From Deinococcales bacterium (GTDB taxonomy: Bacteria > Deinococcota > Deinococci > Deinococcales > JAAFIG01): a stretch of 64,000 nt of DNA. Both the position numbers and the translations under genes were made by a program. This document shows, one piece after another, positions 1 through 64,000 of the stretch. Positions within the stretch are counted from its first letter, which is position 1, and each line of letters opens with the position of its first letter. The DNA lies in assembly GCA_031414595.1 (NCBI GenBank), contig JANNVX010000015.1:1-64000 (forward strand), written 5' to 3'. The notes under the pieces are model-generated. The model did not search any database and was not told the DNA's origin. It saw nothing but the letters and a program-made list of their open reading frames with translations.

Positions 1-76
1 AGGACAGACACAGGGGTCTGTCCCTACAAAATCCATAAAAATACGTCAGGTAGGGGCGGACCCCCGTGTCCGCCCT
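1..76. repeat. GTAG-family REP doublet (REPIN-like)
   Basis: Two outward-facing palindromic units: GTAGGGACAGACCCCTGTGTCTGTCCT (minus, 1-27) and GTAGGGGCGGACCCCCGTGTCCGCCCT (plus, 50-76). A near-identical inverted copy lies at 54980-55057. Confidence 0.85.
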
Positions 77-176
77 GTGACCAATTGTCTGTTTTTGGTC
101 TATTTGAAATCAGGAAGTTATTCTTGGACAGTTCCTTAGCGGTTGAGAATTGCGGTACATAAACTTTTGACATAAA

Positions 177-207
177 AATTAACTTGTCTCAAGTAGACAA
201 GTTAATT
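177..207 (-). terminator. 13-bp stem hairpin, possible terminator downstream of the DUF892 remnant
   Basis: AATTAACTTGTCT-caagt-AGACAAGTTAATT, followed by a T-run on the minus strand. Confidence 0.45.
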
Positions 208-220
208 GACTGCATTTATT

Positions 221-445
221 TTACTGCATTGCGGCTGGGTTGATAACCTGCTCGGCAAGGACGGTTAGCTTTTGGTCGGTATCGCCTTCTTCTTGGGCAA
301 TTCGGTGCAGGGTCTCTGCCCCTTTTTTGTCACCTAGTCGCTTGGCATAAGCACAGACTGTTCCATAACCAGCGATTTCATAATGCTCAACGGCAATTAA
401 GTCAGCATCCTTTACATCTCGGTCGGCTTTTTCTTTATTAAAGTT
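221..445 (-). pseudogene. 3' remnant of a ferritin-like DUF892 (YciE/YciF family) gene
   Basis: Manual translation gives KEKADRDVKDADLIAVEHYEIAGYGTVCAYAKRLGDKKGAETLHRIAQEEGDTDQKLTVLAEQVINPAAMQ*. It contains the EHYEIAxYG hallmark, has an in-frame TAA upstream and no start codon. Not in the ORF track. Confidence 0.8.
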
Positions 446-485
446 TTAGAGTTTTTTTGCTAAAACTTTACATGAGGTGTAGAGT
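439..485 (+). promoter_or_regulatory. Sigma70-type promoter overlapped by an 11-bp inverted repeat
   Basis: TTGCTA (457-462), 17-nt spacer, TAGAGT (480-485). Inverted repeat TAAAGTTTTAG (439-449) / CTAAAACTTTA (460-470). Confidence 0.55.
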
Positions 486-511
486 GTAACCATGAGCTTT
501 TCTGGAAGATT

Positions 512-874
512 GTGAATCAATACCGCATTTTGGTGATTGATGACGAACCCAGAATGCGAAGTCTGATGCAGCGTGGACTTGGTTTAGCTGGTTTTGTGGT
601 CGAAATCGCAGAAACTGGCGAAATAGGCTTAAAAATTGCCCTCGAAACCCGACCAGATTTAATTTTACTTGACCTGATGATGCCGGGTACATTCGATGGT
701 TTTGCTACCTTAGAGCATTTATTAAAACTCGAGCCTCGCCCAAAAGTGGTTGTGGTTTCTGGCAGAGACGAACCAGAAGACAGGCAAAGAGCCAAGATAG
801 CCGATGGATTTTTGGTCAAACCTGTGACATTTGATTTCTTAATAGAAACGATTTATACACTTATTCGGGCGTGA
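512..874 (+). CDS. Single-domain response regulator (receiver only)
   Basis: ILVIDDE, PDLILLDLMMP, VSG and KP receiver motifs; no output domain. Confidence 0.9.
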   Translation: MNQYRILVIDDEPRMRSLMQRGLGLAGFVVEIAETGEIGLKIALETRPDLILLDLMMPGTFDGFATLEHLLKLEPRPKVVVVSGRDEPEDRQRAKIADGFLVKPVTFDFLIETIYTLIRA

Positions 875-3800
875 ACAACCACAAAACCCATTCATCACAA
901 GCATCGCTCAAGGCTAGAAAAGCCAGAGTCGCAAGGAGTAGCGTGGTTAAGCAAAAACCAAAAGAATTACCCGTGGTGGTTGGGATTGGCGCTTCGGCTG
1001 GCGGTCTCGAGGCATTCTCGAAGTTGCTAAAGGCGCTGCCGTCAGACACGGGCATGGCTTTTGTTTTGCTGCAACACCTCGAGCGTAGCCATGACAGCCT
1101 ACTGAGCGAATTACTAGCCCGTACCACCAGTATGCAGGTTCTCGAGATTACAGACGGCAGCAGCCTGACCGCCAATTGTGTCTGTGTGATTCCGCCCAAT
1201 GTCAGTGTGGTGATTAAAGGCGGTGTTTTGCGGCTCTTAAAGCGCCCAGCCGGGCGGGAACTGCATCAGCCAATCAATGAATTTTTTAGCTCCTTGTCCG
1301 AAGCCCGCCAGCATCAGGCAATCGGCGTGGTTTTATCGGGTACAGCTTCGGATGGCACAGTCGGCTTAGAAGCAATTAAAGCCGCCGGCGGAATTACCTT
1401 TGCCCAGCGTCCAGAGTCGGCACGTTCAGCTTCCATGCCGCGCAGTGCAATTGCGGCGGGGGTGGTGGACTTTGTGCTGTCGCCCGAAGAGATTGCTGGC
1501 AAATTAAGCAGCTTGGCAAAAGACCCGTATTTAGGACAAGCAAAGCCCAAAACTCGAGCCAGCACCAAACCAGCTAACGAAGACAGCTTTGAAGGTATTT
1601 TTCATCTGCTGCACGATGCCCGAGGCGTGGATTTTTCCTTGTACCGCTCGACCACTATTCGGCGGCGGATTGCACGGCGGATGCTGCTTGACTCGATGAC
1701 CTCGACCAAAAATTACGCCCAATACCTGCGCGACCAACCAGTGGCGCTCGAGTTGCTGTACCAAGATTTATTGATTGGTGTGACCAGTTTTTTCCGCGAT
1801 GCACACGTTTTTGAGTGCTTACAAAAAAAAGTTTTTCCCGAACTGATTAAAGACCGAGCCACCGACGATGTGCTGCGAATCTGGGTCAGTGGCTGTTCGA
1901 CTGGACAAGAAGCCTATTCGTTGGGCATGGCATTTTTAGAATTTACGGCACAACATAAAATCAATCTGCCTTTGCAAATTTTTGCCACCGACTTAAACGC
2001 CCCAATGCTCGAGAAAGCCCGAGTAGGTTGGTACTCGAACACCAGTCTGGAAAATGTTTCGCCAGAACGCCTAAAACGTTTTTTTAGCCAAGAAAAAGAC
2101 GGTTGGCGCATCAGCGAAGCGGTGCGTAGTCAGGTTATTTTCTCGAGACAGAATGTTTTTGCCGACCCACCTTTTTCACGCATGGATTTGGTCAGTTGCC
2201 GCAATTTGCTGATTTACCTCGAGCCAGCCCTACAAAGCCGTGTGATTCCAACTTTTCATTATGCCCTAAAACCACACGGGGTGCTGTTGCTTGGTGCTTC
2301 GGAAACCGTCGGGCGCTTTGCCGATTTATTTACGGTCTTGGATACCCGATGTCGGTTTTATACCAAGCGTGCGGTTAGTTCTCGGATTCCAAAACCCGAG
2401 GGGCGAATGGTCAAAGTGCTGTCTAGTAAACAAGAACCCAGCGCTTTAGCGGTTAGCACCACCAACCTACAGACAGGGCGCGAAGTGGACCGATTATTGC
2501 TTTTGCGCTATGCCCCAAGCAGTGTCGTGGTCAATGATGCGCTCGAAGTGGTGCAGTTTCGTGGCTCGACCAGTCAATTCTTAGAAGCCCCGAGCGGCAA
2601 AGCCACTTTTAACCTCTTAAAGATGGCTCGAGAAGGCTTAATGTTGCCGTTGCGCCGTTTGACCGAACAAGCCCGCCAAGAAAATCGGGTCGTGCGCCAC
2701 GAAAACATCAGCTATCCGTACAATGGGCAACTGTGCAGCATCAATCTCGAGGTACAGCCGCTAAAACAACCCGGTTGTCTGTTGGTGCTGTTCGAGGTTT
2801 TGCCAGCCTTGCCAGAAATACCGCAAACCGACCCCCAGCCGCCAACCCAAAGCCGCCAAATCGAAGACCTAAACCGCGAACTCTTAGATTCACGCGAATA
2901 CCTGCGTTTTATCCAGCGCCAAAACGAAGACGAAAGCGAACAATTCCAAGCCACCAATGCCGAAATGCAATCCTCGAGCGAAGAACTCCAAAGCCTGAAC
3001 GAAGAACTCGAGACCGCCAAAGAAGAACTCGAGTCCACCAACGAAGAAATGCAGACTCTAAACGAAGAACTGACCACCCGCAACAGCGAATTGGGGCGCT
3101 TAAATACCGTCTTGACCAATTTTCAAGCCAGTGCCGAACTGGCAATTGTGGCGGTCAGTTTGGACTTGGCGGTGCAACGTTTTACCCCACAAGCCGAAAG
3201 CACCTTGGGACTGCGTGGCAGCGACCTTGGGCAGCCGGTCAGTCGGCTGAGTCATCTGTTAAACTTGCCCAATTTAGAAGAACTTGTTTTAGCAGTGATT
3301 AAGCAGCACCAAGCAACCGACCATGAAATCCGCGACCGCGATGGGCGCTGGTTTTTATTGCGGGTTCGTCCCTATTACAGCCTCGAAAACCAAATAGATG
3401 GCGCAGTGCTGGTGTTGTTCGAGATGGATGCCTTAAAACGAGCCGAACTCGAGCGCGAGCGTTTACAACGCCAGACCGAAACGGTTTTTGAAAGCCTAGC
3501 TGATGGCTTGCTTGCCCTAGATTTTGACTGGAATATTACGTACATCAATGCCAGTGGCGCTCGTTTGACGCAGCAATCGGTACAAAGTATGTTGGGACGC
3601 AACCATTGGGAAGTTTTCCCGGAAGGTGTTGGTACAGTCTTTGAAACGGGCTACAAAAAAGCCATGAGCGAACGGGTTGCGGTAGACCTCGAGGCATATT
3701 ACCCAGCCCTGTCCGCCCACTTTGAGGTTCGGGTCGTGCCAGTCGAAAACGGCATCACGGTCTTTTTTCGTGATGTCACCGCAAGACACAACACCGAAAT

Positions 3801-4515
3801 TTTGGTTGCCGAAACCAAAGAAAAACTGCGCGTGCTGGCTGTAAGCCAACAGCGTTTTTTAGCCGATGCCGCCCACGAGTTACGCGCTCCATTGGCGGTT
3901 ATTCAGGGCAATCTCGAGGTCTTAGAACGCTTCCCAAATATGCCCAGCCAAGACCGCCAAGAAGCCATCAGTGACAGCGCCCGTGAAGCCACCCGCTTGG
4001 CAAACCTCGCCAACGATTTACTGGCGTTAGCCCGAGGCGATGCTGGCGACGGTCTACGGCTCGAGCCACTTGAATTATCAGTGCTGGTTTCAGAAACCTT
4101 AAAAGGGGCAACCCACTTGGATGTTCAAAATCAACTCGAACTGGGTACAATCGAGTCGGCTTTGGTGCTTGGCGATGCCAATAAACTCAAGCAATTGGTG
4201 CTGATTCTGCTCGACAACGCCATGAAATACTCGCCCGAAGGTGGCAAGGTCAGCTTGAGTTTGCAACACCAGACCGACCACGCCGAATTGCGGGTTTCGG
4301 ATAGTGGTCAAGGCATTGCCCCCGAAGAACTCGAGCGGGTTTTTGAACGTTTTTACCGCACCGATACTTCGCGTTCACGCCAGACGGGTGGTACAGGGCT
4401 TGGCTTACCAATTGCTCGCTGGATTGCCGAACAGCACCACGCCAAACTTTGGCTCGAGAGTTCGGTTGGGGTTGGCACGACGGCGGTGTTGCGCTTACCG
4501 CTTATGCCAGAATAA
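871..4515 (+). CDS. CheB methylesterase-CheR methyltransferase-coiled coil-PAS-PAS-histidine kinase fusion
   Basis: CheB motifs GASAGG, QHL, SGTASDG; CheR motifs GVTSFFRD, RIWVSGCSTGQEAYS, SCRNLLIY; H-box AAHELRAPL; N/G boxes DNAMKY, DSGQG, GGTGLGL. Confidence 0.93.
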   Translation: MNNHKTHSSQASLKARKARVARSSVVKQKPKELPVVVGIGASAGGLEAFSKLLKALPSDTGMAFVLLQHLERSHDSLLSELLARTTSMQVLEITDGSSLTANCVCVIPPNVSVVIKGGVLRLLKRPAGRELHQPINEFFSSLSEARQHQAIGVVLSGTASDGTVGLEAIKAAGGITFAQRPESARSASMPRSAIAAGVVDFVLSPEEIAGKLSSLAKDPYLGQAKPKTRASTKPANEDSFEGIFHLLHDARGVDFSLYRSTTIRRRIARRMLLDSMTSTKNYAQYLRDQPVALELLYQDLLIGVTSFFRDAHVFECLQKKVFPELIKDRATDDVLRIWVSGCSTGQEAYSLGMAFLEFTAQHKINLPLQIFATDLNAPMLEKARVGWYSNTSLENVSPERLKRFFSQEKDGWRISEAVRSQVIFSRQNVFADPPFSRMDLVSCRNLLIYLEPALQSRVIPTFHYALKPHGVLLLGASETVGRFADLFTVLDTRCRFYTKRAVSSRIPKPEGRMVKVLSSKQEPSALAVSTTNLQTGREVDRLLLLRYAPSSVVVNDALEVVQFRGSTSQFLEAPSGKATFNLLKMAREGLMLPLRRLTEQARQENRVVRHENISYPYNGQLCSINLEVQPLKQPGCLLVLFEVLPALPEIPQTDPQPPTQSRQIEDLNRELLDSREYLRFIQRQNEDESEQFQATNAEMQSSSEELQSLNEELETAKEELESTNEEMQTLNEELTTRNSELGRLNTVLTNFQASAELAIVAVSLDLAVQRFTPQAESTLGLRGSDLGQPVSRLSHLLNLPNLEELVLAVIKQHQATDHEIRDRDGRWFLLRVRPYYSLENQIDGAVLVLFEMDALKRAELERERLQRQTETVFESLADGLLALDFDWNITYINASGARLTQQSVQSMLGRNHWEVFPEGVGTVFETGYKKAMSERVAVDLEAYYPALSAHFEVRVVPVENGITVFFRDVTARHNTEILVAETKEKLRVLAVSQQRFLADAAHELRAPLAVIQGNLEVLERFPNMPSQDRQEAISDSAREATRLANLANDLLALARGDAGDGLRLEPLELSVLVSETLKGATHLDVQNQLELGTIESALVLGDANKLKQLVLILLDNAMKYSPEGGKVSLSLQHQTDHAELRVSDSGQGIAPEELERVFERFYRTDTSRSRQTGGTGLGLPIARWIAEQHHAKLWLESSVGVGTTAVLRLPLMPE

Positions 4516-4876: not shown

Positions 4877-5046
4877 GAGCGCAACAACTTTTTTTGGTGA
4901 AACAGTAACTCATACCACAGAGTCTACAATCACTAACTGATTCTAAGCTGAAGAAACTGCCTCTTTCCTCCTAGACGAATGACCCACTTAGAGCTTAAAT
5001 TTGTGGGTCGTGGGCTACTCGAGAAAAATCTAGGCAGGTATTCAGT

Positions 5047-6200: not shown

Positions 6201-6243
6201 GGTTTGTATTGTACCGCGAAGCCACAGATACGAACGTCCGTAA

Positions 6244-16476: not shown

Positions 16477-16557
16477 GCTTTTCACGTTTAAGTCCTTTGA
16501 AGAGCAGGCTCGAGCGAGTGACTCGAGCCTCACATTTACTACAATTTGTAAGGAGGT

Positions 16558-16587
16558 GTGCTAAAGAGTTTCTTCCCTCTTTAGCAC
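16558..16587 (-). promoter_or_regulatory. Intergenic stem-loop after the binding-protein gene (mRNA stabiliser or attenuator)
   Basis: GTGCTAAAGAG-N8-CTCTTTAGCAC, in the typical position for ABC operons. Confidence 0.6.
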
Positions 16588-16596
16588 GTCATGATT

Positions 16597-17856
16597 TTAA
16601 CGGCGGGCGCGTTTTTCGATTTCGGCACGGGCTTCGGTCAAAGCAGCACGGATGTCTTTGCCCTCGTCGAGAACCGCAGTCAATTGAGTTGTGACAATGG
16701 TTTCGGCAACACTGTCGTACTTATTGACATCAAGTGGTTTGATTTTTTGGGCAGCAGCTTTCCAGAGTTGACGGGCTTTTTGACCACCAAGGAAAGGTAC
16801 TGGTTCGTTAAAGCTGGCATCTGACCAAGCGGCTTTCAGGCTTGGGAATGCGCCGTTGCCTTTGAAAGCAGCAATTTGTTGCTTTCGATCCATCGCCAAA
16901 AATTTGATGATGTCCCAAGCCTCTTTTTTGTTCTTGCTGGCGGTTGGAATGGTGTAGAAGCTACCGCCCCAAGGAGCATATGCGCCATCTGGCAAGTCTT
17001 GAACCCGCCATAATCCTTTGGTTTCTGGTGCCATCCAGTTCTGGAAGTGACCTTGTAACCAAGCACCGCTAAATTGGGTAGCGACAGTCCCGCCCTTAAA
17101 GCCTTCGTACCATTCGTTGCTCCACTCACCAATTTTGGCATCGAGTTTAGCATCGCGGATTTGCTTAGCGATGGTAAAGGCTTTGACCCAACGGGCGCTG
17201 TCTGGTCCGACAATGACTTTGTTGTCCTTAGAAAAGTAAATACCTTCGCCGGCTGGAATGTTTGAGCGCCAGATTAGACCTGCGGCGCTGGCAGCGCTGT
17301 TAATCAGGAATACTTTTTTGTCTTTGGCTTGAATTTTCTTACCTGCGGCAATGTAACCTTCCCAAGTGGTCAGGTCGTTAGCGGTCACACCAGCATTATC
17401 TAAAATATCTTTGCGGTAAAAGGTTGTCCCAGGTCCGATGTCGGCTGGCATACCAATGTAACGACCGTCAGAAGCCGTAGCCTGACCAACGGTGTAATCC
17501 ACAAAGAGGCTCTTGAGTGGTTTAGCGTTGTATGGGGCTTTGTTGAGGTCTTCTAAGCCGCCGCCTTCAGCAAATTTACCAACAAAACCAATCTCTACGG
17601 CTTCGATGTCGTGCAAACCCTGTCCGGTTGCAAGGGCTGTGGTTAGGGCTTGGTGATGATCGCCGTATTGCAAGGCAACCAGTTCAATTTCGTAGTTTGG
17701 GAACTTGGCTTTTAGGGCGGGCATGGCGATTTTAATGGCTTCGTCGAGGCTTGGGAAAGCAGCGATAGAGATTTTTTTCATGCCACCTTGAGCGGCGACT
17801 AAACCAGTGATGGCAACGGCTGCCAAACCAAATGCAACTAATGTACGAGCTTTCAT
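16597..17856 (-). CDS. Carbohydrate ABC transporter substrate-binding protein
   Basis: Signal peptide MKARTLVAFGLAAVA; SBP family 1 features (PADIGP, WGGSF); RBS GGAG. Confidence 0.92.
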   Translation of the reverse strand: MKARTLVAFGLAAVAITGLVAAQGGMKKISIAAFPSLDEAIKIAMPALKAKFPNYEIELVALQYGDHHQALTTALATGQGLHDIEAVEIGFVGKFAEGGGLEDLNKAPYNAKPLKSLFVDYTVGQATASDGRYIGMPADIGPGTTFYRKDILDNAGVTANDLTTWEGYIAAGKKIQAKDKKVFLINSAASAAGLIWRSNIPAGEGIYFSKDNKVIVGPDSARWVKAFTIAKQIRDAKLDAKIGEWSNEWYEGFKGGTVATQFSGAWLQGHFQNWMAPETKGLWRVQDLPDGAYAPWGGSFYTIPTASKNKKEAWDIIKFLAMDRKQQIAAFKGNGAFPSLKAAWSDASFNEPVPFLGGQKARQLWKAAAQKIKPLDVNKYDSVAETIVTTQLTAVLDEGKDIRAALTEARAEIEKRARR

Positions 17857-17957
17857 GGTGTTCCTCCAAATGAGTGAATGAGGGCTTAATTCCAAGATAA
17901 CGAGGTGCTAATCAAATATCCTCCTTGCGGTTGACACAAAAAACTAAATAAAAGGCT

Positions 17958-18965
17958 TTAAGAAAAACGTAGACGTGATGTAGATTCACGAAGAATTAAG
18001 CTAGGTGTAAGGGTAGTCGGTTTTTGAAGATGACCCTCGAGTAAATTCAGTACCATTGCCGCCGCCGCCGCCCCCATGTCTTCGCCCGGTTGGCGCACCG
18101 TTGTTAGCGGAGGGGTGGTGTATCCTGCGGCAAAAAGGTCGTCAAAGCCAACCAGACTCATGTCTTCAGGAACCCTGATACCACGGCGGAATAAGGCTAA
18201 ACGTGCGCCCATTGCAGTCTGGTCATTGGCGGCAAAAATAGCCGTAAAGTCGGCGCGGCGTGAAAGCAGCAATTCTGCGGCTAATAACCCACCGCGTTCT
18301 TGAAAATTACCCTCGAGTACAAGGTCTGGATCGTAAGCAATACCAAATTCGGCTAAGGCTGCCTTATAACCGGTTAAACGCTCAATTGAATCACGGTGCG
18401 TGCTAGGTCCTGCCAAATGGGCGATTTTGCGATGCCCCAACTCGAGCAAGTGACGCATACCAAGCATTGCTCCGTCCTCTTGACTGATGTAAATGCTTTG
18501 GCGTTCTAAACCTTCAACCGACCGACCAACCGTGACGATTGGTAATGATTTCGCCATTTTAAGGATGTATTCATCCTCGAGATTTCCACCAAGAATAATG
18601 ATTGCATCTGACCGACGTGCCGTTAGAATATCCACAGCTTCACGTTCTTCATCTGCCCGCCAATGCCCAGAAATAAACATCGGGTGATAGCCACTGTTTG
18701 CCAGTCCTTGTTCGATACCAACAAAGGTTTCACCATAAAACGGACTCGAGATGGCTTGGGTCACTACCCCAATAATCATTGAACGACCTTTTGCAAGCGC
18801 TTGCGCCATCACATTTGGACGATAACCCAGCGAAGCAATTGCATCTTCGACTGATTTACGTTTGTCTGAACTGACCACAGCCGTCCCGTTGAGGATTCTC
18901 GAGACCGTACTGGGCGAGACATTCGCAATTTTGGCAACATCATTTAAGGTGCGTGCTTGGGACAC
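17958..18965 (-). CDS. LacI-family transcriptional regulator
   Basis: HTH TLNDVAKIANVSPSTVSRILN, hinge YRPNVMAQAL, PPLTTVRQ. Confidence 0.95.
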   Translation of the reverse strand: MSQARTLNDVAKIANVSPSTVSRILNGTAVVSSDKRKSVEDAIASLGYRPNVMAQALAKGRSMIIGVVTQAISSPFYGETFVGIEQGLANSGYHPMFISGHWRADEEREAVDILTARRSDAIIILGGNLEDEYILKMAKSLPIVTVGRSVEGLERQSIYISQEDGAMLGMRHLLELGHRKIAHLAGPSTHRDSIERLTGYKAALAEFGIAYDPDLVLEGNFQERGGLLAAELLLSRRADFTAIFAANDQTAMGARLALFRRGIRVPEDMSLVGFDDLFAAGYTTPPLTTVRQPGEDMGAAAAAMVLNLLEGHLQKPTTLTPSLILRESTSRLRFS

Positions 18966-24056: not shown

Positions 24057-24152
24057 AAGCTGTTTGTATAAGACTTCGGTTTGGGCATCAAACGCCACAA
24101 AGACCACTCGCTCGAGACTCGAGGGTAATTCAAGAACTGCTCGGGCTTCACG
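24045..24152 (-). pseudogene. Probable 3' remnant of a macrodomain (YmdB-like) gene
   Basis: Manual translation REARAVLELPSSLERVVFVAFDAQTEVLYKQLLPL* resembles the final strand and helix of macrodomains; in-frame TAG immediately upstream. Confidence 0.55.
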
Positions 24153-24196
24153 CTAAAAGCAAAAGCCCCCTGTACGCATAGAATCACAAGTAGTCA

Positions 24197-24419
24197 GCCC
24201 CTCTCCCAACTCGCTTGAGGCTCGTCACCCTCCCCCAAATACGCTTCGCTTGGGGAGGGTTTTGGATTCGGGTAGTGTTTTGTGTTTCCTTGAAAAGTGC
24301 TTTTAGAACAATACTTTTTGGTGTTCCCCCAAATTTAATTAGCAAAACAAACCGAACAACCCTCTCCCGCGCTTTTTGGCGGGACGAGGGTAACGAGCCT
24401 AAGCGAGTTGGGTGAGGGT
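24197..24419. repeat. Composite inverted-repeat element (CCCTCWCCC type, MITE/REP-like)
   Basis: Imperfect terminal inverted repeats of about 40 bp (CCCTCTCCCAACTCGCTTGAGGCTCGTCACCCTC vs reverse complement CCCTCACCCAACTCGCTTAGGCTCGTTACCCTC), plus inner hairpins at 24228-24259 and 24360-24390. Confidence 0.75.
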
Positions 24420-24490
24420 TGGATGACGTTGACAGGCTATCACTCTCGAGTAATTAGGGATTTGGTAATGTCGCCACGCCAGACCTCAAG

Positions 24491-25987
24491 CTAGAATTCA
24501 GGGCGGAACTCACCCCAAAGTTGCCTTAGTACACCACAAACTTCGCCCAGCGTGGCATTTGCCCTGAAAGCTGCCATGACAAGCGGGAACACATTTTCTT
24601 CACTCGAGGCGGCTGTTTTTAAGTTTGCTAAGGCTGCTGTAGTGGCATTATTGTCTCGAGCCGCACGGTAGGCTTGTACCTCAGCACGGCGTAGGGCATC
24701 GGTTTGGGGGTTGATGCTTTGAATCGGAACACTCGAGCCTTCTTTACTTTGGAATTTATTGACCCCAACCACAATTCGCGTCCCCTTTTCGATTTCTTTT
24801 TGGAACTGATAAGCGGCTTCTTCGATTTCTGACTGAATAAACCCTGCTTCGATGGCGGCTACACTGCCACCAAGCGCTTCGATTTGCTCTAAAATATGGG
24901 TGGCTTGTTGCTCGAGCGCATCGGTTAGGCTTTCGATATAATAACTGCCACCTAGCGGGTCGGGTTCTTTGGTCACACCACTTTCAAAGGCAAGCACTTG
25001 CTGGGTACGAAGCGCCAGTTTTGCGCTTGATTCGGTCGGCAGCCCAAGGGCTTCGTCAAAAGCATTGGTGTGTAAACTCTGTGTGCCACCAAGCACCGCC
25101 GCCAGTGCTTGATACGCAGTGCGGATAATATTTACTTCGGGTTGCTGTGCGGTGAGGGTACTGCCTCCCGTCTGGGTATGAAAACGCAACATCCATGATT
25201 TGGGATTGAGCGCCCCAAATTCAACCCTTGCAATTTGCGCCCACATCCGCCGTGCTGCCCTAAACTTAGCGGTTTCCTCGAGAATATCATTGTGGCAAGC
25301 AAAGAAAAAACTAAGGCGCGGTGCAAATTCATCCAAGGTTAAACCCGTCTCGAGGGCTGCCCGAACATAGGCTTTGGCATTTGATAAGGTAAACGCAATT
25401 TCTTGGGCGGCGGTACTGCCCGCTTCGCGGATGTGATAGCCCGAAATGCTGATCGTGTTCCATTTTGGAATGTGCTTGGTGCAGTACACAAAAGTATCGG
25501 TAATTAAACGCATAGACTGTTTTGGCGGGTAAATATATGTTCCTCGGGCAATGTATTCTTTCAAAATATCGTTTTGAATTGTGCCACCAATTTGAGTTAA
25601 ATCCACGCCTTGCGACTCGGCAACCAGTGCATAAAGTGCTAGTAACATCATTGCTGGGGCGTTAATCGTCATGCTGGTGGTGACTTGCTCAAGCGGAATG
25701 TCCTTAAACAGTTTTTTCATGTCGTCTAGCGTGGCAATGCTCACACCAACCCGTCCGACTTCACCAAGCGCCAAGGCATCGTCAGGGTCAAGTCCGAGTT
25801 GCGTTGGCAAATCAAAGGCTACTGACAAACCGGTTGTACCTTGGGATAACAAATACTGGTAGCGTTTATTGGATTCCTCGGCGCTGCCAAAACCCGCGTA
25901 CTGACGCATTGTCCAAGCTCTAGACTTGTACATGTCTATATGGATGCCTCTGGTAAACGGAAACTGCCCAGATTGTAAAGTGTTCAT
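24491..25987 (-). CDS. Methylmalonyl-CoA mutase, substrate-binding (N-terminal) subunit
   Basis: [31 protein letters not shown] and [11 protein letters not shown] motifs; no B12-binding DxHxxG domain. Confidence 0.92.
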
Positions 25988-53274: not shown

Positions 53275-54513
53275 TTACAACTCGAGAACACTCAGCACTT
53301 CAACATGATTGGTCTGCGGATAAAAATCATACGGCTGTACCAAGGTGAGCTTATACCCACCTCGAGCCAGCTTCGCCACATCCCGCGCCCATGTCGCTGG
53401 GTCGCACGATACATACACCAAACGCGGCGCTCGAGCCAGCAGCAAAGCAGTTAGTACATCCTTTTCCAAACCAGCCCTTGGTGGGTCAAGCACAATACAA
53501 TCGGCAAAAACACCCTCGAGCCGCGAAGCATCCCCACGAGTAAAACCAATGTTATCCACCTCGAGTCTCGCAGCATCGGCTTGCCCTCGTGCCACGGCTT
53601 CTGGGTTAATTTCAATCACGCGGACATTGACAAAATTCTTCGCCAGATGCAAACCCATTGTGCCACTGCCGCCGTATAAATCAATCGCTAAGCCACCCGT
53701 TCCAGCCAGACGCGCTGCCTCGAGATACATTTGGGAAGCCGCCACAGGATTGACTTGGGCAAAACTCGAGGCGGTCACCGAAACCGCGTAATCGCCGTAC
53801 TGCTCGAGAATGGATTCGAGTCCCCAAAGATGTTCCGTACCCGCCCGAAAGCGCCCCTCGAGCGAAGCAAAAGCATAACTAATTCCAGCCACGCCCAGTT
53901 CTTTTAAGTGATACACAGCTTTTTTGAAGCGGTGCGGTTCTTCTTTGGCGATTAAACAGACCAAGACTTCACCCGTTAAAAAACTGCCGCGAAAAGCAAT
54001 TTCTAGGGTTGGCTCGAGACTGGCAGCTTTAATGCTGCTTAGACCATCGGCAACCCCGTGCATTAAAAGTGGATCGTCGTATAGCATCCAAATTCGGTGC
54101 GACAATGGAATTCGGTAGCCGAGTCCAACAGGAGAAAGCGCGTACTGCGCCCCAGAGCGATACCGCCACTCGAGCGAACTTGGTTTGGTCGGCAGCACAG
54201 TTACATCCTCGAGCTTCGCAATACGCTGCAATGCCTCGAGGATAAAACCACGCTTAAACTCGAGTTGTGCCTCATAACTGGCATGAGCCAAATCTGCGGT
54301 TGGCGGCGTACCACGTGGCGGTTGGACTCGGGTGATGGATGGTTCAATCACCCGCACCAGCGTCCCCTCGAGCGCCCCACGTTTTTTCTTCAGTTCCACT
54401 TCCACCAGTTCGGTTGGCAATGCCCCAGCCACCAGCACCACGCCGCTTTCGGTACGCGCCAAGCCAAGACCACCAGAAACCAATTTTTCGATACGCACTC
54501 GAGCAGTTGTCAT
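53275..54513 (-). CDS. RNA (uracil-C5)-methyltransferase, RlmD/TrmA family
   Basis: SFAQVN, DLYGGSG, LDPPRAG, YVSCDP and FYPQTNHVE motifs. Start at ATG 54513, 7 nt after TAGACT. Confidence 0.9.
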   Translation of the reverse strand: MTTARVRIEKLVSGGLGLARTESGVVLVAGALPTELVEVELKKKRGALEGTLVRVIEPSITRVQPPRGTPPTADLAHASYEAQLEFKRGFILEALQRIAKLEDVTVLPTKPSSLEWRYRSGAQYALSPVGLGYRIPLSHRIWMLYDDPLLMHGVADGLSSIKAASLEPTLEIAFRGSFLTGEVLVCLIAKEEPHRFKKAVYHLKELGVAGISYAFASLEGRFRAGTEHLWGLESILEQYGDYAVSVTASSFAQVNPVAASQMYLEAARLAGTGGLAIDLYGGSGTMGLHLAKNFVNVRVIEINPEAVARGQADAARLEVDNIGFTRGDASRLEGVFADCIVLDPPRAGLEKDVLTALLLARAPRLVYVSCDPATWARDVAKLARGGYKLTLVQPYDFYPQTNHVEVLSVLEL

Positions 54514-54539
54514 TGGCGCTAGTCTACCCTGTGATGTGG

Positions 54540-54872
54540 TTATTTCTCGAGACAAGTATCAAGTACGGTGATGGTCTCTAGGTTTGTACCCTTAAATAAA
54601 GTGGCTTCTTTACCCTTGTTCCACCAAGTATAGCCACTGCCAACATACCGCGCCCCAGAAGCCGAAATTTGGGTTTGCATTTTTAGCTTTACGCCATTCA
54701 CAATGACTGTGGCAAAAGAACCCTGAAAGTTATTTAAGTAAATCGCTTGGACTCGAGTCCCTTTTTCGCATTTGTACGCCACTTTGAAGGGTGCATCAGA
54801 ATCCGAATTGCCAGCCCCAGCTAAAGCGACACCAAAAAGGGATAGAACCAAACCAAAAAGGAATTTTTGCAT
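54540..54872 (-). CDS. MliC/PliC-family lysozyme inhibitor-like secreted protein
   Basis: Signal peptide; YKC, SASGARY and WWNKGKEA motifs. Confidence 0.85.
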   Translation of the reverse strand: MQKFLFGLVLSLFGVALAGAGNSDSDAPFKVAYKCEKGTRVQAIYLNNFQGSFATVIVNGVKLKMQTQISASGARYVGSGYTWWNKGKEATLFKGTNLETITVLDTCLEK

Positions 54873-55110: not shown

Positions 55111-56376
55111 ATGCTAACCGCGTTACAACTTGGGAATTTTAAGTCATGGCGTGAAGTCAATGTGCCACTAGCCCCAATCACAGGTTTTTTTGGCACAAAC
55201 AGCAGTGGAAAAAGCAGCCTCCTGCAAGCGCTTTTGCTGATGAAGCAAACAGTAGAAAGTTCAGACCAAGGGCAGGTTCTCGAGTTTGGAGATGACAACA
55301 GTTTAGTACAATTGAGTTCGTACAAAGAACTTATTTGGAATCATGATTCAAATAATGCTTTGATTTTAGGATTTATGCGAGACTTCAAAAACAGTAATCT
55401 TGAAATACTCTCAAAATCGTATTTGCCAATAAAATCTCTAGAGTTTGAGTGCAGAATTGTAGAGACTCGAGACACCATCAAAGTGGATTTTTTTCGATTT
55501 ACTCCTGGAAATTCCAATCTGCCAATAAGTTCTGAATTTAGGCAAATTCGCAAATTTTATAAAATCGTTCATACAACTCAACAGGTACCAGGCGACTCTT
55601 TCTTCGGTTCTGGGAGTCTTGAAGTTGCTTTAGAAGAAGTTTTTCTTCAAATGTATTACTTAGGTCCACTTAGAGATTCTCCCAAACGATTTTACTCTTG
55701 GTCGGGCGCTGCCCCTTCAAATGTCGGTAAATCTGGCGAAAATACCATTGCTGCACTGCTTGCGGCTCGAGTTGGTGGCAATAAAGTCGGTGACACCCCA
55801 CTCGAGAATTATATAGCCGAAAAACTAAAACAATTGGGTTTAATAGATTCTTTTCGGCTCGAGGAACTGCGCGAAGGCACAAACATTTTTCGTGTGCTGG
55901 TGCGCCGTACTCCTGAATCCCCCGAAGTTTCCCTGACCGATGTTGGCTTTGGTGTTTCCCAAGTGCTGCCTGTGCTGGTGCTGTGCTATTACGTCCCCGA
56001 AGGTTCTACCATTCTGCTCGAGCAACCCGAATTGCACCTGCATCCCAGTGTTCAATCTGGTTTAGCCGATATTTTTATTGATGCTTATAAAACCCGTGGA
56101 GTACAAATTATTCTCGAGAGTCATTCGGAGCATTTATTACAGCGTTTGCAAAGGCGAATTGCCGAGGAGTTTGAAGGAATTACCAACACAGACATTAGTG
56201 TTTACTTTTGTCGTCTCGAGCATGGCGAATCGAAACTCGAGTCGCTGGAACTCGATGAGTACGGCAATATCCATAATTACCCAGAAGAATTCTTTGGAGA
56301 CCGTTTTGCAGAAATGGTCGCCGTGACAGAAGCAGGAATTGCAAGACGAGAAAAGAAGGTTCTCGAGCCTGTATGA
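55111..56376 (+). CDS. ABC-type ATPase (AAA_15/AAA_21) with C-terminal DUF3696-like domain
   Basis: NFKSW, Walker A GTNSSGKS, YLGPLR, VGFGVSQ, Walker B LLEQPELHLHP, ESHSE, LDEYGNI-NYPEEFF. Start at ATG 55111, 6 nt after TACAAT. Confidence 0.88.
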   Translation: MLTALQLGNFKSWREVNVPLAPITGFFGTNSSGKSSLLQALLLMKQTVESSDQGQVLEFGDDNSLVQLSSYKELIWNHDSNNALILGFMRDFKNSNLEILSKSYLPIKSLEFECRIVETRDTIKVDFFRFTPGNSNLPISSEFRQIRKFYKIVHTTQQVPGDSFFGSGSLEVALEEVFLQMYYLGPLRDSPKRFYSWSGAAPSNVGKSGENTIAALLAARVGGNKVGDTPLENYIAEKLKQLGLIDSFRLEELREGTNIFRVLVRRTPESPEVSLTDVGFGVSQVLPVLVLCYYVPEGSTILLEQPELHLHPSVQSGLADIFIDAYKTRGVQIILESHSEHLLQRLQRRIAEEFEGITNTDISVYFCRLEHGESKLESLELDEYGNIHNYPEEFFGDRFAEMVAVTEAGIARREKKVLEPV

Positions 56377-56864
56377 GTGCTTTTGTGATTGATGAAAATG
56401 TGCTTGTGAATGCCATGAAGGAAGCGCCCGACGAGAATACAACTGACGTATGTATCCGACAATGTGCCAAGACTTTATTGGATGTCAGAAAAGGCATTGT
56501 TATTTTGGATGACACAAACATCATTTACCGAAAATACCGTAGCCATTTTAGAGAAACACCGACAAGAAAAACACCTGAATTCTTGGTTTGGTTGCTCAGT
56601 GTCCAACATATGCCCAAGTATTGCGAACGGGTTAAATTCACGCCTCTCGCGCCTAGTTTTCTCCAAGTCCCGCTTGAATTGCGAATCCCAGACGCAGAAA
56701 ACAAGGTCTTTGATTTAGATGACCACATTTGGTTGGCGGTAGCCAAAGCCAGTAAAAATAGCCCGACCATTCTGAACGCCACCGATAGCGATTGGAAAAA
56801 CTGGGAACAACAACTGCTAAAACACGGTTTTGATGTTCGCTGTATTTGCCAATTAAAAATCTAA
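56373..56864 (+). CDS. PIN-like domain protein coupled to the ATPase
   Basis: FVIDENV, ILDD, FDLDD and NATDSDW acidic pattern; ATGA overlap with the ATPase stop. Confidence 0.65.
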   Translation: MSAFVIDENVLVNAMKEAPDENTTDVCIRQCAKTLLDVRKGIVILDDTNIIYRKYRSHFRETPTRKTPEFLVWLLSVQHMPKYCERVKFTPLAPSFLQVPLELRIPDAENKVFDLDDHIWLAVAKASKNSPTILNATDSDWKNWEQQLLKHGFDVRCICQLKI

Positions 56865-59007: not shown

Positions 59008-59061
59008 GCGCTACGATAACTGATTCCTCGAGCCGAGGTGATTTTTTATATACTGCTTGAT

Positions 59062-60309: not shown

Positions 60310-60463
60310 GTCATTCGAGGTGTGGAGGTACGTTGAATCTTAAAAATAACGTCTAGGACAAATTTCTCAAAACTCAAAGCCAAATAGTCTGCTGCTGTTC
60401 AAAAACAATTTTGCTAAGGTCTGCATTGAAAAGTCTAGTCTAGTATGATACACTTGGTCTACT

Positions 60464-60697
60464 ATGGAAACCACAACAGTGAATGTTTACCAAGCCAAAA
60501 CTCAACTTTCGCAACTGATAGACCGTGCCTTGAGTGGCGAACAGATTGTCTTATCTAGGCGTGGAAAACCACTGATTAAGTTCTTGCCCCTCGAGAATAC
60601 ACCAAAAAAACGTGAATTGGGTTTCTTAGATTTTCCGCTTGAACCAGACTTTGATAAACGCTGCATGGAACAACTGGATTTTGAGATGTTCAAGTGA
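60464..60697 (+). CDS. Phd/YefM-family antitoxin
   Basis: VNVYQAKTQLSQLID-GEQIVLSRRGKP. Confidence 0.9.
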   Translation: METTTVNVYQAKTQLSQLIDRALSGEQIVLSRRGKPLIKFLPLENTPKKRELGFLDFPLEPDFDKRCMEQLDFEMFK

Positions 60698-61086
60698 AAT
60701 CTTACCTTTTGGATACCCATGTTTTTATCTGGGCAATTCGTGAACCAAAAAAATTGTCTATTGCGGCTCGTCGTATTCTCGATAATCCTCAAGCCGATTT
60801 GCTCATCTCGAGTATTACACCTTGGGAAATCGCCATGAAATACCGCATCGGAAAAATGCCAGAAGCTGCCTATATTCTGCCGCAATTTGATTCGCATTTA
60901 CAAAAAATTCGCGCTCGTGACTTACCATTTTCTTTGCAACATGGACTTGAAACGTCCAGTGTACAATTGCCTCATGGTGATCCTTTTGACCGAGCGCTTT
61001 TTGCTCAAGCCAAACTCGAGGGCTTAACCTTAATCAGTGCCGATACAGCCTTTGAAGATGCGGTTGGCGTAAAGGTGTTGTGGTAA
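60694..61086 (+). CDS. VapC PIN-domain toxin
   Basis: LLDTH, SSITPWE, HGDPFDR and ISAD motifs; GTGA overlap with the antitoxin. Confidence 0.92.
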   Translation: MKSYLLDTHVFIWAIREPKKLSIAARRILDNPQADLLISSITPWEIAMKYRIGKMPEAAYILPQFDSHLQKIRARDLPFSLQHGLETSSVQLPHGDPFDRALFAQAKLEGLTLISADTAFEDAVGVKVLW

Positions 61087-61093
61087 AAAAAAC

Positions 61094-61126
61094 CGAACTC
61101 GAGAAAAATACATCTCGAGTTCTTTT
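61094..61126. terminator. Hairpin between convergent genes, probable terminator
   Basis: GAACTCGAGA-N8-TCTCGAGTTC followed by TTTT. Confidence 0.6.
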
Positions 61127-61201
61127 AGGTGGATATTTTGGATTTGAAAAGCCCTACGAGAACTCCTACAAAACCCTCGAGAAGCTGCCTTTTGGCATGG
61201 A

Positions 61202-62680
61202 TTAGCGGTTCAAGTCAAAGACAAATAAGTAATGCTCGGTGCTGCGGGTTTTAAGACTCATTTCTTTGGGTGTACCAATTTCGATTTTGGCTTTAACATC
61301 AGTCATTTCTAAACCGATTTCCGCCCCGTTCTTTTGTGGTGCGCTTAAACGCAGGGTTTTTACGCCAGCCATTGGCTCGCTGCTCTGTAGGGAAACGGGT
61401 ACACTGGTGCTTTCGTGTGGGAATTTATAGTTGTTTGGGTTGCGCCACTCTCCTGTAACATTTGCCACGGCTGGGAAAATCCAACCAGCCAAATAGAGCT
61501 TGTTGCCATACGCGGCAATGCCCATGTTGTGATCCATGGCGAGAACTTCTTTTTGCGTGCCGGTAAAGTAATACATTTCTTGCTCGAGTTTGCCGTCTAA
61601 GTTGTATTTGAGTAAAACACTATCGCCAAATTGATAATCAGCTTGGGTGTTTTCTTGATAGCCGATTCGTCCGCCTAAGTAAAGGCTATTGCCAATCACC
61701 CGAACGATTCTTGCATTGTTGCGGTCATTGCGAACCCCAGCGTTGTAGCGTTGCCCCCAGAGAATTTTACCATTGGGGTCTAGTTTGAATAGCTCGAGGT
61801 AGGTTTGTGTTCCGTGGACATCGCTAGCGGCATACAGATTGCCATTTGCATCCATATCAAGGTCAGAAATGGTGCTACCACGGGTTTCTTGGGGAATTTC
61901 TTTTGCCCAGTTAAACTCGAGTTTATCTTGAATTACGCTTAACTTGAGGATTTGTCCTCGGGCGGTGCGTCCGTTCCAACCGCCTAAGTAAAGGCTGCTG
62001 GCGTTGGCATTGGCAACGATGCTATACACGCGGTCATTGCTGCCGGGAGTTGGGTCTATGGTCAGGGCATCGAGTTGATTGCCGTTATTTGTATCAAAAA
62101 TACTGACCAGAATCTGGGCTTCGTCGCCAGCGTCGCCGCCGCCACCAGCCACAAAGACCCGATTACCGACCACCGTCAGGCTCGAGGCGTTGGTTGCCCC
62201 ATTGGCTTGGTTTTTCCAATGGGGTCGCCAGGCTTTGCTCCAGAGCATTTCACCGTTACTGGATAATTTGACAACAATTTGGCTTGGTGGTTCGGCATTG
62301 ATTTTCCAAGCGGCTCGAGCCACGATATAAACACTACCTGCGCTGTCTATGGCGATAGAACGACTGGTTGCGCCGTGGTCGCCATCTATGTAGCGCATCG
62401 GAGAATCTAAGCCCGGTGTGCCAATGCTTTTTGCCCATAAAAGCTCGCCAGATGGAGATACCTTAGAAACCAGTAAATCGCCGTAGTAAGTGTCCACAAA
62501 GCTCTTGGAGACCCCAACCGTGATGGCATTGCCGTTTGAATCCACCACCAAACCATTTAAGACATCCGAACTATTGCCTCCCCAAACGCGCTCGAGACTT
62601 GGTTTAGGGGTGCTGTTTTGGGCAAAAGCAAACACGCTTAAGCCAATTGCCAATGCAGTTGTTTGTAGAATTTTTTTCAT
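61202..62680 (-). CDS. Secreted beta-propeller repeat protein
   Basis: Signal peptide MKKILQTTALAIGLSVFAFA; repeated DxxGN...K-xxGxxxW blades; RBS GAGGAAGG. Confidence 0.75.
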   Translation of the reverse strand: MKKILQTTALAIGLSVFAFAQNSTPKPSLERVWGGNSSDVLNGLVVDSNGNAITVGVSKSFVDTYYGDLLVSKVSPSGELLWAKSIGTPGLDSPMRYIDGDHGATSRSIAIDSAGSVYIVARAAWKINAEPPSQIVVKLSSNGEMLWSKAWRPHWKNQANGATNASSLTVVGNRVFVAGGGGDAGDEAQILVSIFDTNNGNQLDALTIDPTPGSNDRVYSIVANANASSLYLGGWNGRTARGQILKLSVIQDKLEFNWAKEIPQETRGSTISDLDMDANGNLYAASDVHGTQTYLELFKLDPNGKILWGQRYNAGVRNDRNNARIVRVIGNSLYLGGRIGYQENTQADYQFGDSVLLKYNLDGKLEQEMYYFTGTQKEVLAMDHNMGIAAYGNKLYLAGWIFPAVANVTGEWRNPNNYKFPHESTSVPVSLQSSEPMAGVKTLRLSAPQKNGAEIGLEMTDVKAKIEIGTPKEMSLKTRSTEHYLFVFDLNR

Positions 62681-62711
62681 GTCCTTCCTCCGCATATCAG
62701 TATCAAAGAAA

Positions 62712-62729
62712 GGTGTTATGTGGGTGTTA
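62712..62729 (-). promoter_or_regulatory. Heptamer direct repeat with 11-bp period, candidate activator site
   Basis: TAACACC-caca-TAACACC, 7 nt upstream of a -10-like GATACT. Confidence 0.5.
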
Positions 62730-64000
62730 TGCGAAAACATCAAAAGGCAAAATCTCCTCGAGCGAAATAAGTGGTTCAATCGGCACTTGCCCGATTTTTT
62801 GGCGCAATTCTTTGAGTATTTTCTCGAGCAATTGTTGTTCTCGGGGGGCTGGTTGGCGCTCCAAAACAAGGTTGGCAATGCGCCATGCTTGGAGGTACTG
62901 CTTATTTTCAAGCTCGAGTTCGGTCAGGGCAACAAGGGTCAGATTTGTTTGCGGTGCCGCTTCGAGTTGCAGACTTACTTTAAGGCTTTGCAGTAACATC
63001 TTTTTGGCTGGCTCGAGTTGCCCTAGGTCTTGTAGGGTCAGTCCAATACCACGCAAGGCAATCACTTCAACATAGCCGTGTCCCATACGCTGACAGCGTT
63101 TGAGGGTCTGTTCAAAACCACCTAGGGCTTGAGGGAGTTTTTGTTCACGGCGGGCGGTATCGGCTAAGTGGCTGCTGACCAGTGTTTCGCCAAAATGATC
63201 GCCTATTGCTTGGGCAATACTCAAACATGCCCTAAATAATTGTTTGGCTTGGCTTAATTGCCCAAGGTTTTTTAGGGCATCGCCAAGATTAAGCTGGGCA
63301 ATAAACATGGCTCTGGGCTGAGCGCTTTTGCGCCGTAACTCGAGGCTCTCACGGTGGTACTGCACAGCTTTTTGGGCATCGCCACTGTTTAAGGAAACCA
63401 AACCCAAAGAATTGAGTACCCGAGCCTTGGCTGCACCATCCTCGAGTTGCTGCATCAGACCTAAAGCGATTTCAAATTGCTGCGTGGCTTTGGTAAAATC
63501 ACCCATGCCCTCAAAGACATTACCCAATTGATAGGCGCAAACACCAATCCCGCGTGGGTCGTTTTCGCGGGTATACAGTGCTTGGGCATTCTCGAGGGTT
63601 TTTAAGGTGCTGTGGTACAAACCCAAGCGAAATTCTGCCCATGCCAAGCGCACCAAGAGTTTAGCATGGGCAAGGGTGTTGGCTTGGCTGGCATCAGCCG
63701 CGATTCTAAAGAGTTGTTGAGCTTCAAAAAATAAGCCTCGTAAATCTAGGTAAGTCGAAAGAGCAACACTGGCAGAACTAAGTAATTCTATTTGCTGATG
63801 TTCACAGGCAAAATTCCAAGCCGCACGGATATTCTCGAGTTCAATCCGAACCGCCTCGAGATGATTTTTTGGTTCAATTTCTAGTTTGCCCTCGAGTTTG
63901 GCTAACCATTGCAAAAAATACTGAGCATGAGCGGCTTTGACCTCAATCTGGGATTGCAGATTTTTGATCGCGGCGTGCCGAATCAGTTTGAGCATCGTAA
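62727..64000 (-). CDS. C-terminal part of an ATPase/TPR (AfsR/STAND-like) protein, 5' end outside the window
   Basis: HAQYF, ELENIRAAW and RG-EA motifs typical of NB-ARC-associated regions, followed by TPR repeats; the frame is open to the window edge. Confidence 0.75.
   Translation of the reverse strand, partial: TMLKLIRHAAIKNLQSQIEVKAAHAQYFLQWLAKLEGKLEIEPKNHLEAVRIELENIRAAWNFACEHQQIELLSSASVALSTYLDLRGLFFEAQQLFRIAADASQANTLAHAKLLVRLAWAEFRLGLYHSTLKTLENAQALYTRENDPRGIGVCAYQLGNVFEGMGDFTKATQQFEIALGLMQQLEDGAAKARVLNSLGLVSLNSGDAQKAVQYHRESLELRRKSAQPRAMFIAQLNLGDALKNLGQLSQAKQLFRACLSIAQAIGDHFGETLVSSHLADTARREQKLPQALGGFEQTLKRCQRMGHGYVEVIALRGIGLTLQDLGQLEPAKKMLLQSLKVSLQLEAAPQTNLTLVALTELELENKQYLQAWRIANLVLERQPAPREQQLLEKILKELRQKIGQVPIEPLISLEEILPFDVFA

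Follow-up and report, generated by a model that had tools for sequence, protein, structure and literature searches.

The hexamer CTCGAG behaves as a highly iterated palindrome throughout a family of Deinococcales

The window analysed here is the whole of a 64,000-nucleotide stretch from the assembly of an uncultured Deinococcales bacterium (GCA_031414595.1, contig JANNVX010000015.1; G000:C15:1-64000 in our numbering of genomes and contigs). The genome it belongs to (G000) comprises 4,488,778 bp in 120 contigs with 47.2% GC. The hexamer CTCGAG occurs 349 times in the window, while 100 dinucleotide-preserving shuffles give 7.94 +/- 3.0 copies and a maximum of 19. The genome total is 23,235, or one per 193 bp (5.2 per kb), and CTCGAG is the commonest hexamer of the genome, with 46,470 both-strand counts versus 14,786 for the runner-up, which is an overlapping word. 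An original prediction from the window alone had described CTCGAG as a highly iterated palindrome (HIP) resembling HIP1 of the cyanobacteria. The wider data bear this out, as the excess is present in all reading frames and in intergenic DNA and goes beyond codon and dipeptide effects. CTCGAG qualifies as a highly iterated palindrome: a directional force, acting on the DNA itself, maintains the word at roughly 5 copies in every kb.

Base composition predicts one CTCGAG per 4.6 kb, within the range of 4–5 kb first estimated. Genome-wide, the ratio of observed to expected copies (O/E) is 23.9 under a Markov model of order 0, 43.6 under order 1, 18.1 under order 2 and 3.8 under order 3. The fourth-order O/E is 1.16. 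This last value is circular and uninformative, because 90% of CTCGA pentamers (23,235 of 25,876) already sit in CTCGAG, and the maximal-order expectation was dropped as a test of the excess. The hexamer also contains 69% of all TCGA tetramers. The four bases on each side are near-uniform, with every base at a frequency of 0.17–0.30, and the unit is therefore the hexamer and not a longer repeat. The 18 one-base variants number 173–1,368 copies each and 11,992 in sum (O/E 0.16–1.26). The perfect hexamer alone is favoured, over every one-base variant, so that the landscape is cliff-shaped. A balance of 23,235 sites to 11,992 one-off neighbours would require an approximately 35-fold bias, at each step, in the fixation of gains over losses.

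Location was assigned with a crude gene set of our own, consisting of 3,866 non-overlapping open reading frames (ORFs) of at least 100 aa that cover 88% of the genome. CTCGAG occurs 12,082 times in frame 0 (CTC GAG, Leu-Glu), 3,992 times in frame 1, 4,299 times in frame 2 and 2,852 times between genes. Intergenic O/E is 29 (order 0) to 39 (order 1), and spacers under 100 bp show the same density as longer ones. The Leu-Glu frame holds 59% of coding sites, and this share and the low fourth-order O/E are what would favour an explanation by a bias of codons or dipeptides; the same class of explanation includes an unrecognised longer repeat or mobile element and an assembly artefact. However, a shuffle of synonymous codons within each gene, which leaves proteins and per-gene codon usage unchanged, retains 1,972 sites of the 20,420 observed, an excess of 9.4x, 9.7x and 16x in the three frames. 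The shuffle is conservative, because codon usage is itself inflated by CTCGAG; a whole-codon shuffle leaves 929 sites. The enrichment thus persists when codons are preserved, and it is not limited to the Leu-Glu frame. Coding and intergenic densities are equal for practical purposes (5.14 versus 5.34 per kb), the fourth-order argument fails because the pentamers occur almost solely within the hexamer, and the flanks reveal no longer core. An artefact would have to recur in 19 genomes from several projects, one of them a single contig. The frame split, the synonymous shuffle and the intergenic density together refute this class of explanation, to which we assign virtually no chance of being correct.

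The word has left a clear imprint on codon usage and on the proteome. Sites of CTCGAG contain 52% of all CTC, 47% of GAG, 30% of CGA and 29% of TCG codons. Among 20,173 Leu-Glu dipeptides, 60% are spelled CTCGAG, compared with about 5% expected from codon frequencies. Leu-Glu is also the most over-represented dipeptide (O/E 2.23), while Glu-Leu stands at 0.98, Val-Glu at 0.72 and Met-Glu at 0.53. Across genomes, the Leu-Glu ratio tracks site density. It is 1.9–2.45 in the family to which the window belongs, 1.2–1.5 and 1.65 in partly enriched sister families, 0.91 in Deinococcus loci and about 1.0 in other phyla. The force overrides synonymous-codon choice and partly overrides protein sequence.

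Individual sites are unusually well conserved. Contigs of three genomes of the same genus were projected onto G000. At 7.2% divergence (G005), about 69% of all coding and 78% of all intergenic hexamers are unchanged, compared with 86–93% of CTCGAG sites, depending on frame or intergenic location. The corresponding values are 61–63% and 79–88% at 9.3% divergence (G001), and 41–44% and 67–78% at 15% divergence (G004). CTCGAG is kept 3–6 times better than the background, synonymous positions included. Where Leu-Glu itself is conserved, its codons are identical in 92, 89 and 77% of cases if spelled CTCGAG and in 57, 65 and 44% if spelled otherwise, which indicates that the constraint acts on DNA at synonymous positions. 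Sites private to one genome of a pair are roughly balanced (27 versus 20, 100 versus 88 and 63 versus 35). Alternative alleles are mostly single transitions and affect all six positions. On two terminal branches, with G001 as outgroup and 31 kb of three-way coverage, 158 ancestral sites yield 25 losses, 6 gains and 8 ambiguous changes.

Between genera, the positions of sites turn over. A codon alignment of the methylmalonyl-CoA mutase gene from 14 family genomes includes 32 distinct site positions, of which three alone are near-universal (11/12, 10/11 and 9/11). Many of the lineage-specific sites put Leu-Glu in place of another dipeptide, for example Asn-Pro, Gly-Thr or Leu-Ser. New sites thus keep arising while existing ones are maintained. 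This combination of conservation and turnover agrees with the active site-favouring process that had been proposed from the window.

The enrichment is shared by all 19 sampled genomes of this uncultured family, which represent five genera and span 46–61% GC, at 4.3–6.8 sites per kb. They include a single-contig genome of 5.1 Mb (G013) with 4.6 sites per kb, and 7.7 per kb in its sampled intergenic DNA. The stretch of the window itself occurs in freshwater-sediment metagenomes. Among 201 genomes sampled from the order, several genera of sister family f2 reach 1.3–2.6 and three genera of sister family f5 reach 1.4–3.4 sites per kb. In the five enriched f2 and f5 genomes with enough sampled DNA, the sites again lie in all frames and between genes (O/E 6–12). 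In the remaining f5 genomes and in family f4, CTCGAG is about as frequent as its reversal, GAGCTC. Family f3 avoids the word, with 26–1,193 copies in genomes of 1.9–5.8 Mb (26–942 in its large genus g7; examples are G020, G084 and G092). Three loci from named Deinococcus (L006, L007 and L010) show the same avoidance, with 0–1 site in 21 kb, and from this f3 would appear to be Deinococcus-like. A single word is purged in one family and amplified in another, and the order as a whole displays graded states of 0.01–0.3, 1–3.4 and 4–7 sites per kb. Comparison with related Deinococcota thus extends the prediction to the entire family, and in part to f2 and f5. The force is old and operates in many lineages, independently of GC content and of methylase repertoire.

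Few regions of the genome escape. Only four inter-site gaps reach 2.5 kb, and only 11 regions have 3 or fewer sites per 3 kb, most of them at 33–44% GC. The most depleted ORFs encode an RHS/PT-HINT protein, a Type I HsdR, sacsin/NOV_C, WD40, DUF2326, PNP_UDP_1 and clostripain proteins, and a polysaccharide flippase. All of these are low in GC and look like recent imports. Depletion at normal GC is seen in the S-layer gene slpA (7 sites versus 23.6 expected, 0.30x) and in secreted subtilases, and a 14.5-kb stretch surrounding rplN, which encodes ribosomal protein L14, contains as a whole 49 sites versus about 75 expected (3.4 versus 5.2 per kb, ~0.65x). These observations fit two further proposals from the window, namely that sites are countered in highly expressed genes, as slpA and the rplN region are likely to be, and that they are scarce in recently acquired ones, as in the low-GC accessory genes. 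Restriction-modification (R-M) genes that vary between strains have an ordinary density of 1.3–8.8 sites per kb. The force acts in core genes and long-resident accessory genes alike. An HK97-type capsid gene (PF05065), taken as a marker of prophages, was found in none of the 19 family genomes, the single-contig genome included. A scan of viral contigs for clusters of three sites returned at least 126 stretches, most of them phage DNA of 60–78% GC in which GAGCTC is common too, and no phage of the CTCGAG-rich family was recognisable among the stretches listed.

Along the genome the sites are scattered almost at random. The gaps between them are near-geometric (mean 191, median 138, coefficient of variation (CV) 0.99), with the codon period as sole periodicity. 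Counts in 1-kb bins are Poisson-like (variance/mean 1.05); their autocorrelation falls from 0.18 at a lag of 1 kb to 0.09 at 2 kb, and between 3 and 60 kb it stays within about ±0.07. No periodic pattern in density up to 60 kb was found on six contigs of 112–305 kb. The metagene profile around start codons is flat, and 189 of the 3,866 ORFs lack the word versus about 150 expected. The distribution is therefore uneven, as had been remarked, to a weaker degree than was implied. Spacings under about 18 bp are depleted overall. At spacing 7, CTCGAG-N-CTCGAG occurs 101 times genome-wide with any central base, compared with 17–49 occurrences at each spacing from 8 to 14. The spacing-6 doublet CTCGAGCTCGAG has zero occurrences genome-wide, because it would create the avoided word GAGCTC.

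Coordinates of the features of the window are collected in the table. The densest gene has 6.6 expected sites (P = 5e-4) and is the sixth most enriched of all ORFs. The original prediction had counted 17 copies in 53281–54550; that number belongs to the complete ORF, whereas the narrower interval contains 16. The solute-binding-protein gene does lack the word, as stated then. With 6.7 sites expected (P = 1.2e-3, uncorrected over 3,866 genes) and a normal GC of 0.49, it ranks about 20th among the depleted ORFs. A second gene noted for the absence of CTCGAG indeed has none; the PIN label it had been given is unconfirmed, with no Pfam match at 1e-5.

Table. Features of the window that bear on the distribution of CTCGAG.
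Feature	Coordinates	Strand	Remarks
CTCGAG palindrome, dispersed	1..64000	.	349 copies (5.45 per kb) in intergenic DNA and in genes of either strand, all frames included
tRNA (U5)-methyltransferase-like ORF, densest gene of the window	53275..54555	-	17 sites in 1,281 bp; PF05958
Solute-binding-protein gene	16597..17895	-	Zero sites; PF01547; enclosing inter-site gap 16522-18036
163-aa ORF (492 bp)	56373..56864	+	Zero sites; P(0) = 0.078, not statistically notable
Methylmalonyl-CoA mutase gene	24491..25987	-	6 sites; tracer of site turnover across 14 family genomes
Intergenic doublet CTCGAG-N-CTCGAG	24111..24123	.	Example of the spacing-7 excess

Two other features of the window are recorded here. 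An intergenic element of ~280 bp (24145–24454) has terminal inverted repeats, resembles a miniature inverted-repeat transposable element and contains almost no CTCGAG. Copies at 71–100% identity are present on other contigs (24 BLAST hits, 10 of them of at least 220 bp) and also in related genomes. An Rfam search across the window, including this element, gave no match. At 871–4515 on the forward strand lies a gene for a 1,214-aa fusion of a CheB methylesterase, a CheR methyltransferase, two PAS domains and a histidine kinase.

The prediction had also linked CTCGAG to DNA methyltransferases, and here the gene content does not follow it. An XhoI-family nuclease (PF04555) is found in none of the 19 family genomes, G000 among them, and a Vsr gene (PF03852) was not found in G000. 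Elsewhere in the order the XhoI family is present in 6 of 201 genomes and absent from all 53 sampled f3 genomes. In the two loci checked it adjoins a PF01555 methylase. This XhoI-linked methylase of the sister families was considered as a cognate enzyme and set aside, since its best homolog in G000 has 26% identity. One of the sister-family XhoI genes (L115/L116, G031:C1:1095688-1096226) contains two stop codons and is probably a pseudogene. About 25 methylase genes are present in G000, several of them beside ScaI-, NgoPII-, TdeIII- and NgoBV-like nucleases. The 5-methylcytosine (C5) methylases beside the NgoPII-, TdeIII- and NgoBV-like nucleases are not conserved in G013 or G010. Two TaqI_C-type N6-methyladenine (m6A) methylases (C89 and C4) were the most plausible enzymes for CTCGAG or NTCGAN. 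They occur in four and three of the 19 family genomes, and were rejected. The complete genome G013 lacks PF01555 genes altogether and has a single C5 gene and a few N6 genes, all of which stay within 29–38% identity to genes of G000. No methylase ortholog group from PF01555, PF00145, PF07669, PF02384 or PF02086 spans the sampled family genomes. Judged by gene content, the conserved cognate orphan methylase that is the hallmark of HIP1 is not found in this family.

Methylases of the D12 class come closest to being universal, with representatives in 18 of the 19 genomes. They were rejected as a conserved orphan since they form unrelated, non-orthologous groups (22–33% identity to the G000 copy) whose neighbours and word statistics fit GATC and GGCC. 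At G000:C1:27108-28500 (L369:1297-2876), a Dam-like D12 methylase gene overlaps the next gene downstream, which encodes a MutH/Sau3AI-like nuclease (PF02976, E = 1.7e-11). GATC has an O/E of 0.11–0.16 in genomes with this pair versus 1.3–1.5 in G013, G009 and G010. The pair is probably a GATC R-M system, with a MutH-like nickase as an alternative role. The other main D12 group matches PDB 7M6B (E = 1.7e-91). This is the structure of M.CbeI, whose specificity we take to be GGCC, and the group tracks GGCC avoidance, with an O/E of 0–0.01 when paired and 0.29–0.42 when solitary. M.CbeI is an alpha-class N4-cytosine methylase (PMC8616854). A single genomic slot carries either of two systems: an NgoPII-like nuclease with a C5 methylase in G000 (G000:C90:33086-35056), or an M.CbeI-like methylase with a 365-aa gene in G001 (L372:1393-3322). 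The 365-aa gene has no Pfam match. Both systems apparently target GGCC. The ScaI-, NgoPII-, TdeIII- and NgoBV-like nucleases and their methylases match an extreme avoidance of palindromes in G000, where O/E is below 0.2 for 42 of the 64 palindromic hexamers and does not exceed 0.05 for 28 of them. GGGCCC is counted 0 times, TGCGCA 2, GAGCTC 6, AGTACT 15 and the tetramer GGCC 152 times.

As the source of the force we tentatively favour a putative conserved protein, other than a methylase, that would read symmetric duplex CTCGAG during DNA uptake or recombination and repair. DNA with the perfect word would be taken up, protected or recombined preferentially, making CTCGAG a self-tag comparable to uptake signal sequences (USS) or to Chi, spreading by molecular drive, as is now proposed for HIP1. 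Mutated sites would be replaced from the population pool, which would explain their conservation, and new sites would spread through the population, which would explain positional turnover. Foreign DNA would arrive without the tag, which would account for the low-GC islands, and strongly constrained genes would resist it. Such a self-tag could account for the cliff-shaped landscape and the proteome imprint, for sites that are conserved and yet turn over, and for tagged accessory genes beside untagged islands. Of the 19 family genomes, 18 have an intact comEC, the gene for the competence channel. For HIP1, one preprint reports that the word boosts natural transformation (bioRxiv 10.1101/2024.09.10.611283), and another report proposes it as an uptake signal (PMC13756078). 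A narrower version is possible, though doubtful. CTCGAG could be a methyltransferase-independent 'password' of an old Deinococcales branch, its bare hexamer read by a putative conserved protein in uptake or recombinational repair and driven to about 25,000 copies per genome.

A number of points weigh against this preference for a reader in uptake or recombination. DNA uptake in Thermus is sequence-independent. The presence of comEC is no more than compatible with the idea, as the gene is close to universal, with 10 of 14 control genomes carrying it. Known uptake sequences are non-palindromic words of 9–12 bp, and a palindrome of six bases that coincides with a classical Type II site would more naturally suggest a reader of the restriction or methylase kind. 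HIP1 acts on transformation in a methylation-dependent way, whereas for CTCGAG a conserved methylase was not found; that absence in turn rests on five Pfam families and, except for G013, on incomplete metagenome-assembled genomes (MAGs), and methylase specificity is unreadable from sequence. The spacing of CTCGAG is random and not even, as its CV shows. The 25 losses and 6 gains come from a small sample and fit the purging of loss alleles, but also slow decay. Finally, k-mer-based binning of MAGs may exaggerate the uniformity of the word and the scarcity of islands.

Methylation offers an alternative that we regard as unlikely, although it has several features in its favour. In Elhai's model for HIPs, here applied to CTCGAG, a CTCGAG or TCGA methylase would mark the sites and a methyl- or context-directed nuclease would restore and create them, through biased repair or as a strand signal for mismatch repair. 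The word is a classical Type II site, one copy per 193 bp is a density similar to that of GATC in E. coli, transitions dominate the one-off variants, and G000 has methylases in abundance, two of them of TaqI_C type; cyanobacterial HIPs, moreover, co-occur with cognate orphan methylases (PMC4390886). However, neither the sporadic TaqI_C-type genes nor the non-orthologous D12 groups supply a family-wide enzyme, the sparse and divergent repertoire of G013 supplies none either, and G000 is without Vsr. Gains and losses at all six positions, and not just at those prone to deamination, are also difficult to reconcile with such repair. Another alternative, put forward by Xu et al. for HIP1, is that each site is under selection because an abundant protein, of the nucleoid or of chromosome organisation or segregation, binds to it; for CTCGAG we hold this to be quite unlikely. 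The order is known for condensed nucleoids, a palindrome suits a dimeric binder, and sites are conserved within and between genes; smc lies in the window, and the depletion of spacings under about 18 bp would fit a footprint. That depletion may equally reflect coding constraint and GAGCTC avoidance, and effective selection on some 23,000 sites implies a large load. Periodicity at 1–60 kb is not seen on the six contigs of at least 100 kb, 1-kb counts are Poisson-like, positions turn over freely between genera, and no candidate protein is at hand.

It is very improbable that CTCGAG owes its abundance to R-M conflict, as a word that was safe or addictive in a lineage purging nearly all other palindromes, for instance as the relic of an ancient XhoI-type system. 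The low counts of words such as GGCC and GAGCTC, the several R-M systems with one slot swapped between strains, the XhoI-family nucleases of the order (one of them a pseudogene) and the avoidance of CTCGAG in Deinococcus-like genomes would all suit it. However, avoidance of other words frees just about 1,000 copies per hexamer and not 23,000, R-M systems select against their own sites and not for them, an XhoI-family gene was found in none of the 19 family genomes, and in G000 the nearest homolog of the XhoI-linked methylase reaches just 26% identity.

A prior description of CTCGAG as a highly iterated or hyper-abundant palindrome was not found, and the word was missing from the papers listed on Deinococcus, Deinococcota and Meiothermus, in a search that had subscription journals and REBASE outside its reach. 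For some 30 years HIP1 has lacked an explanation, and it was regarded as restricted to the cyanobacteria; CTCGAG constitutes a second case. It adds an independent and even denser palindrome in another phylum, with graded states, a range of 46–61% GC and no obvious cognate methylase, and comparative analysis over about 200 genomes can ask which genes track it. The 2.2-fold enrichment of Leu-Glu shows that a force at the DNA level can reshape a proteome, and both k-mer-based binning and codon models will be skewed in such genomes. If the word were indeed a password, it would represent a second independent origin of HIPs, separated from methylation. Codon use and about 1% of dipeptides would then have been rewritten by a reader protein, and enrichment as opposed to active purging in Deinococcus would mark compartments of gene flow within the order.

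Several known systems invite comparison. R-M systems of the XhoI/PaeR7I type recognise the identical word, but their hosts avoid or tolerate their own site, whereas here it is 24-fold enriched and the nuclease is missing from all 19 genomes. Dcm/Vsr repair at CCWGG-related words of E. coli is similar in that a context-dependent repair bias alters oligonucleotide abundance. That bias acts modestly and only on T:G mismatches at a single position, whereas CTCGAG changes at all six, in a genome without Vsr and without a conserved C5 methylase. Chi is likewise a short, over-represented self word that modulates recombinational repair, and its excess is just a few-fold; it differs in being asymmetric, strand-skewed and read by RecBCD or AddAB. 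A Chi-like role in recombination has been suggested for HIP1 (bioRxiv 10.1101/2024.09.10.611283).

The USS of Pasteurellaceae and the DNA uptake sequences (DUS) of Neisseriaceae share with CTCGAG a steep excess of the perfect word over its variants, occurrence in coding DNA that leaves its mark on the proteome, presence in related genera and rarity in foreign islands, and competence genes are present in the CTCGAG-rich family as well. The excess of USS and DUS is explained by molecular drive. These are asymmetric words of 9–12 bp at about one per kb, whereas CTCGAG, at 5.2 per kb, is a hexamer and a palindrome whose flanks are uninformative. Preferential uptake has been demonstrated for USS and DUS; for CTCGAG it is a proposal.

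The closest likeness is to HIP1 (GCGATCGC) and the alternate HIPs. Both are short GC-rich palindromes, tens-fold over-represented in all frames and between genes, conserved beyond the background and lineage-wide, in lineages rich in R-M systems and in palindrome avoidance. In the size of its excess, its independence of frame and the conservation of its sites, CTCGAG fits HIPs as described by Elhai (2015) and Xu (2018). HIP1 is reported at 15–300x over-representation and up to 1 per 350 nt (PMC5861425), and CTCGAG, at 1 per 150–230 bp, is denser. It is also another word, a hexamer and not an octamer, in Deinococcales and not in cyanobacteria, and the HIP1 core CGATCG occurs 3 times in G000. A periodicity of 10–90 kb, as in HIP1, was not detected for CTCGAG on contigs of 112–305 kb at lags to 60 kb. 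HIPs track cognate orphan methylases (PMC4390886), and no conserved one was found with CTCGAG. Lacking the methylase link of HIP1, CTCGAG is not HIP1 proper; in its behaviour it is HIP-like.

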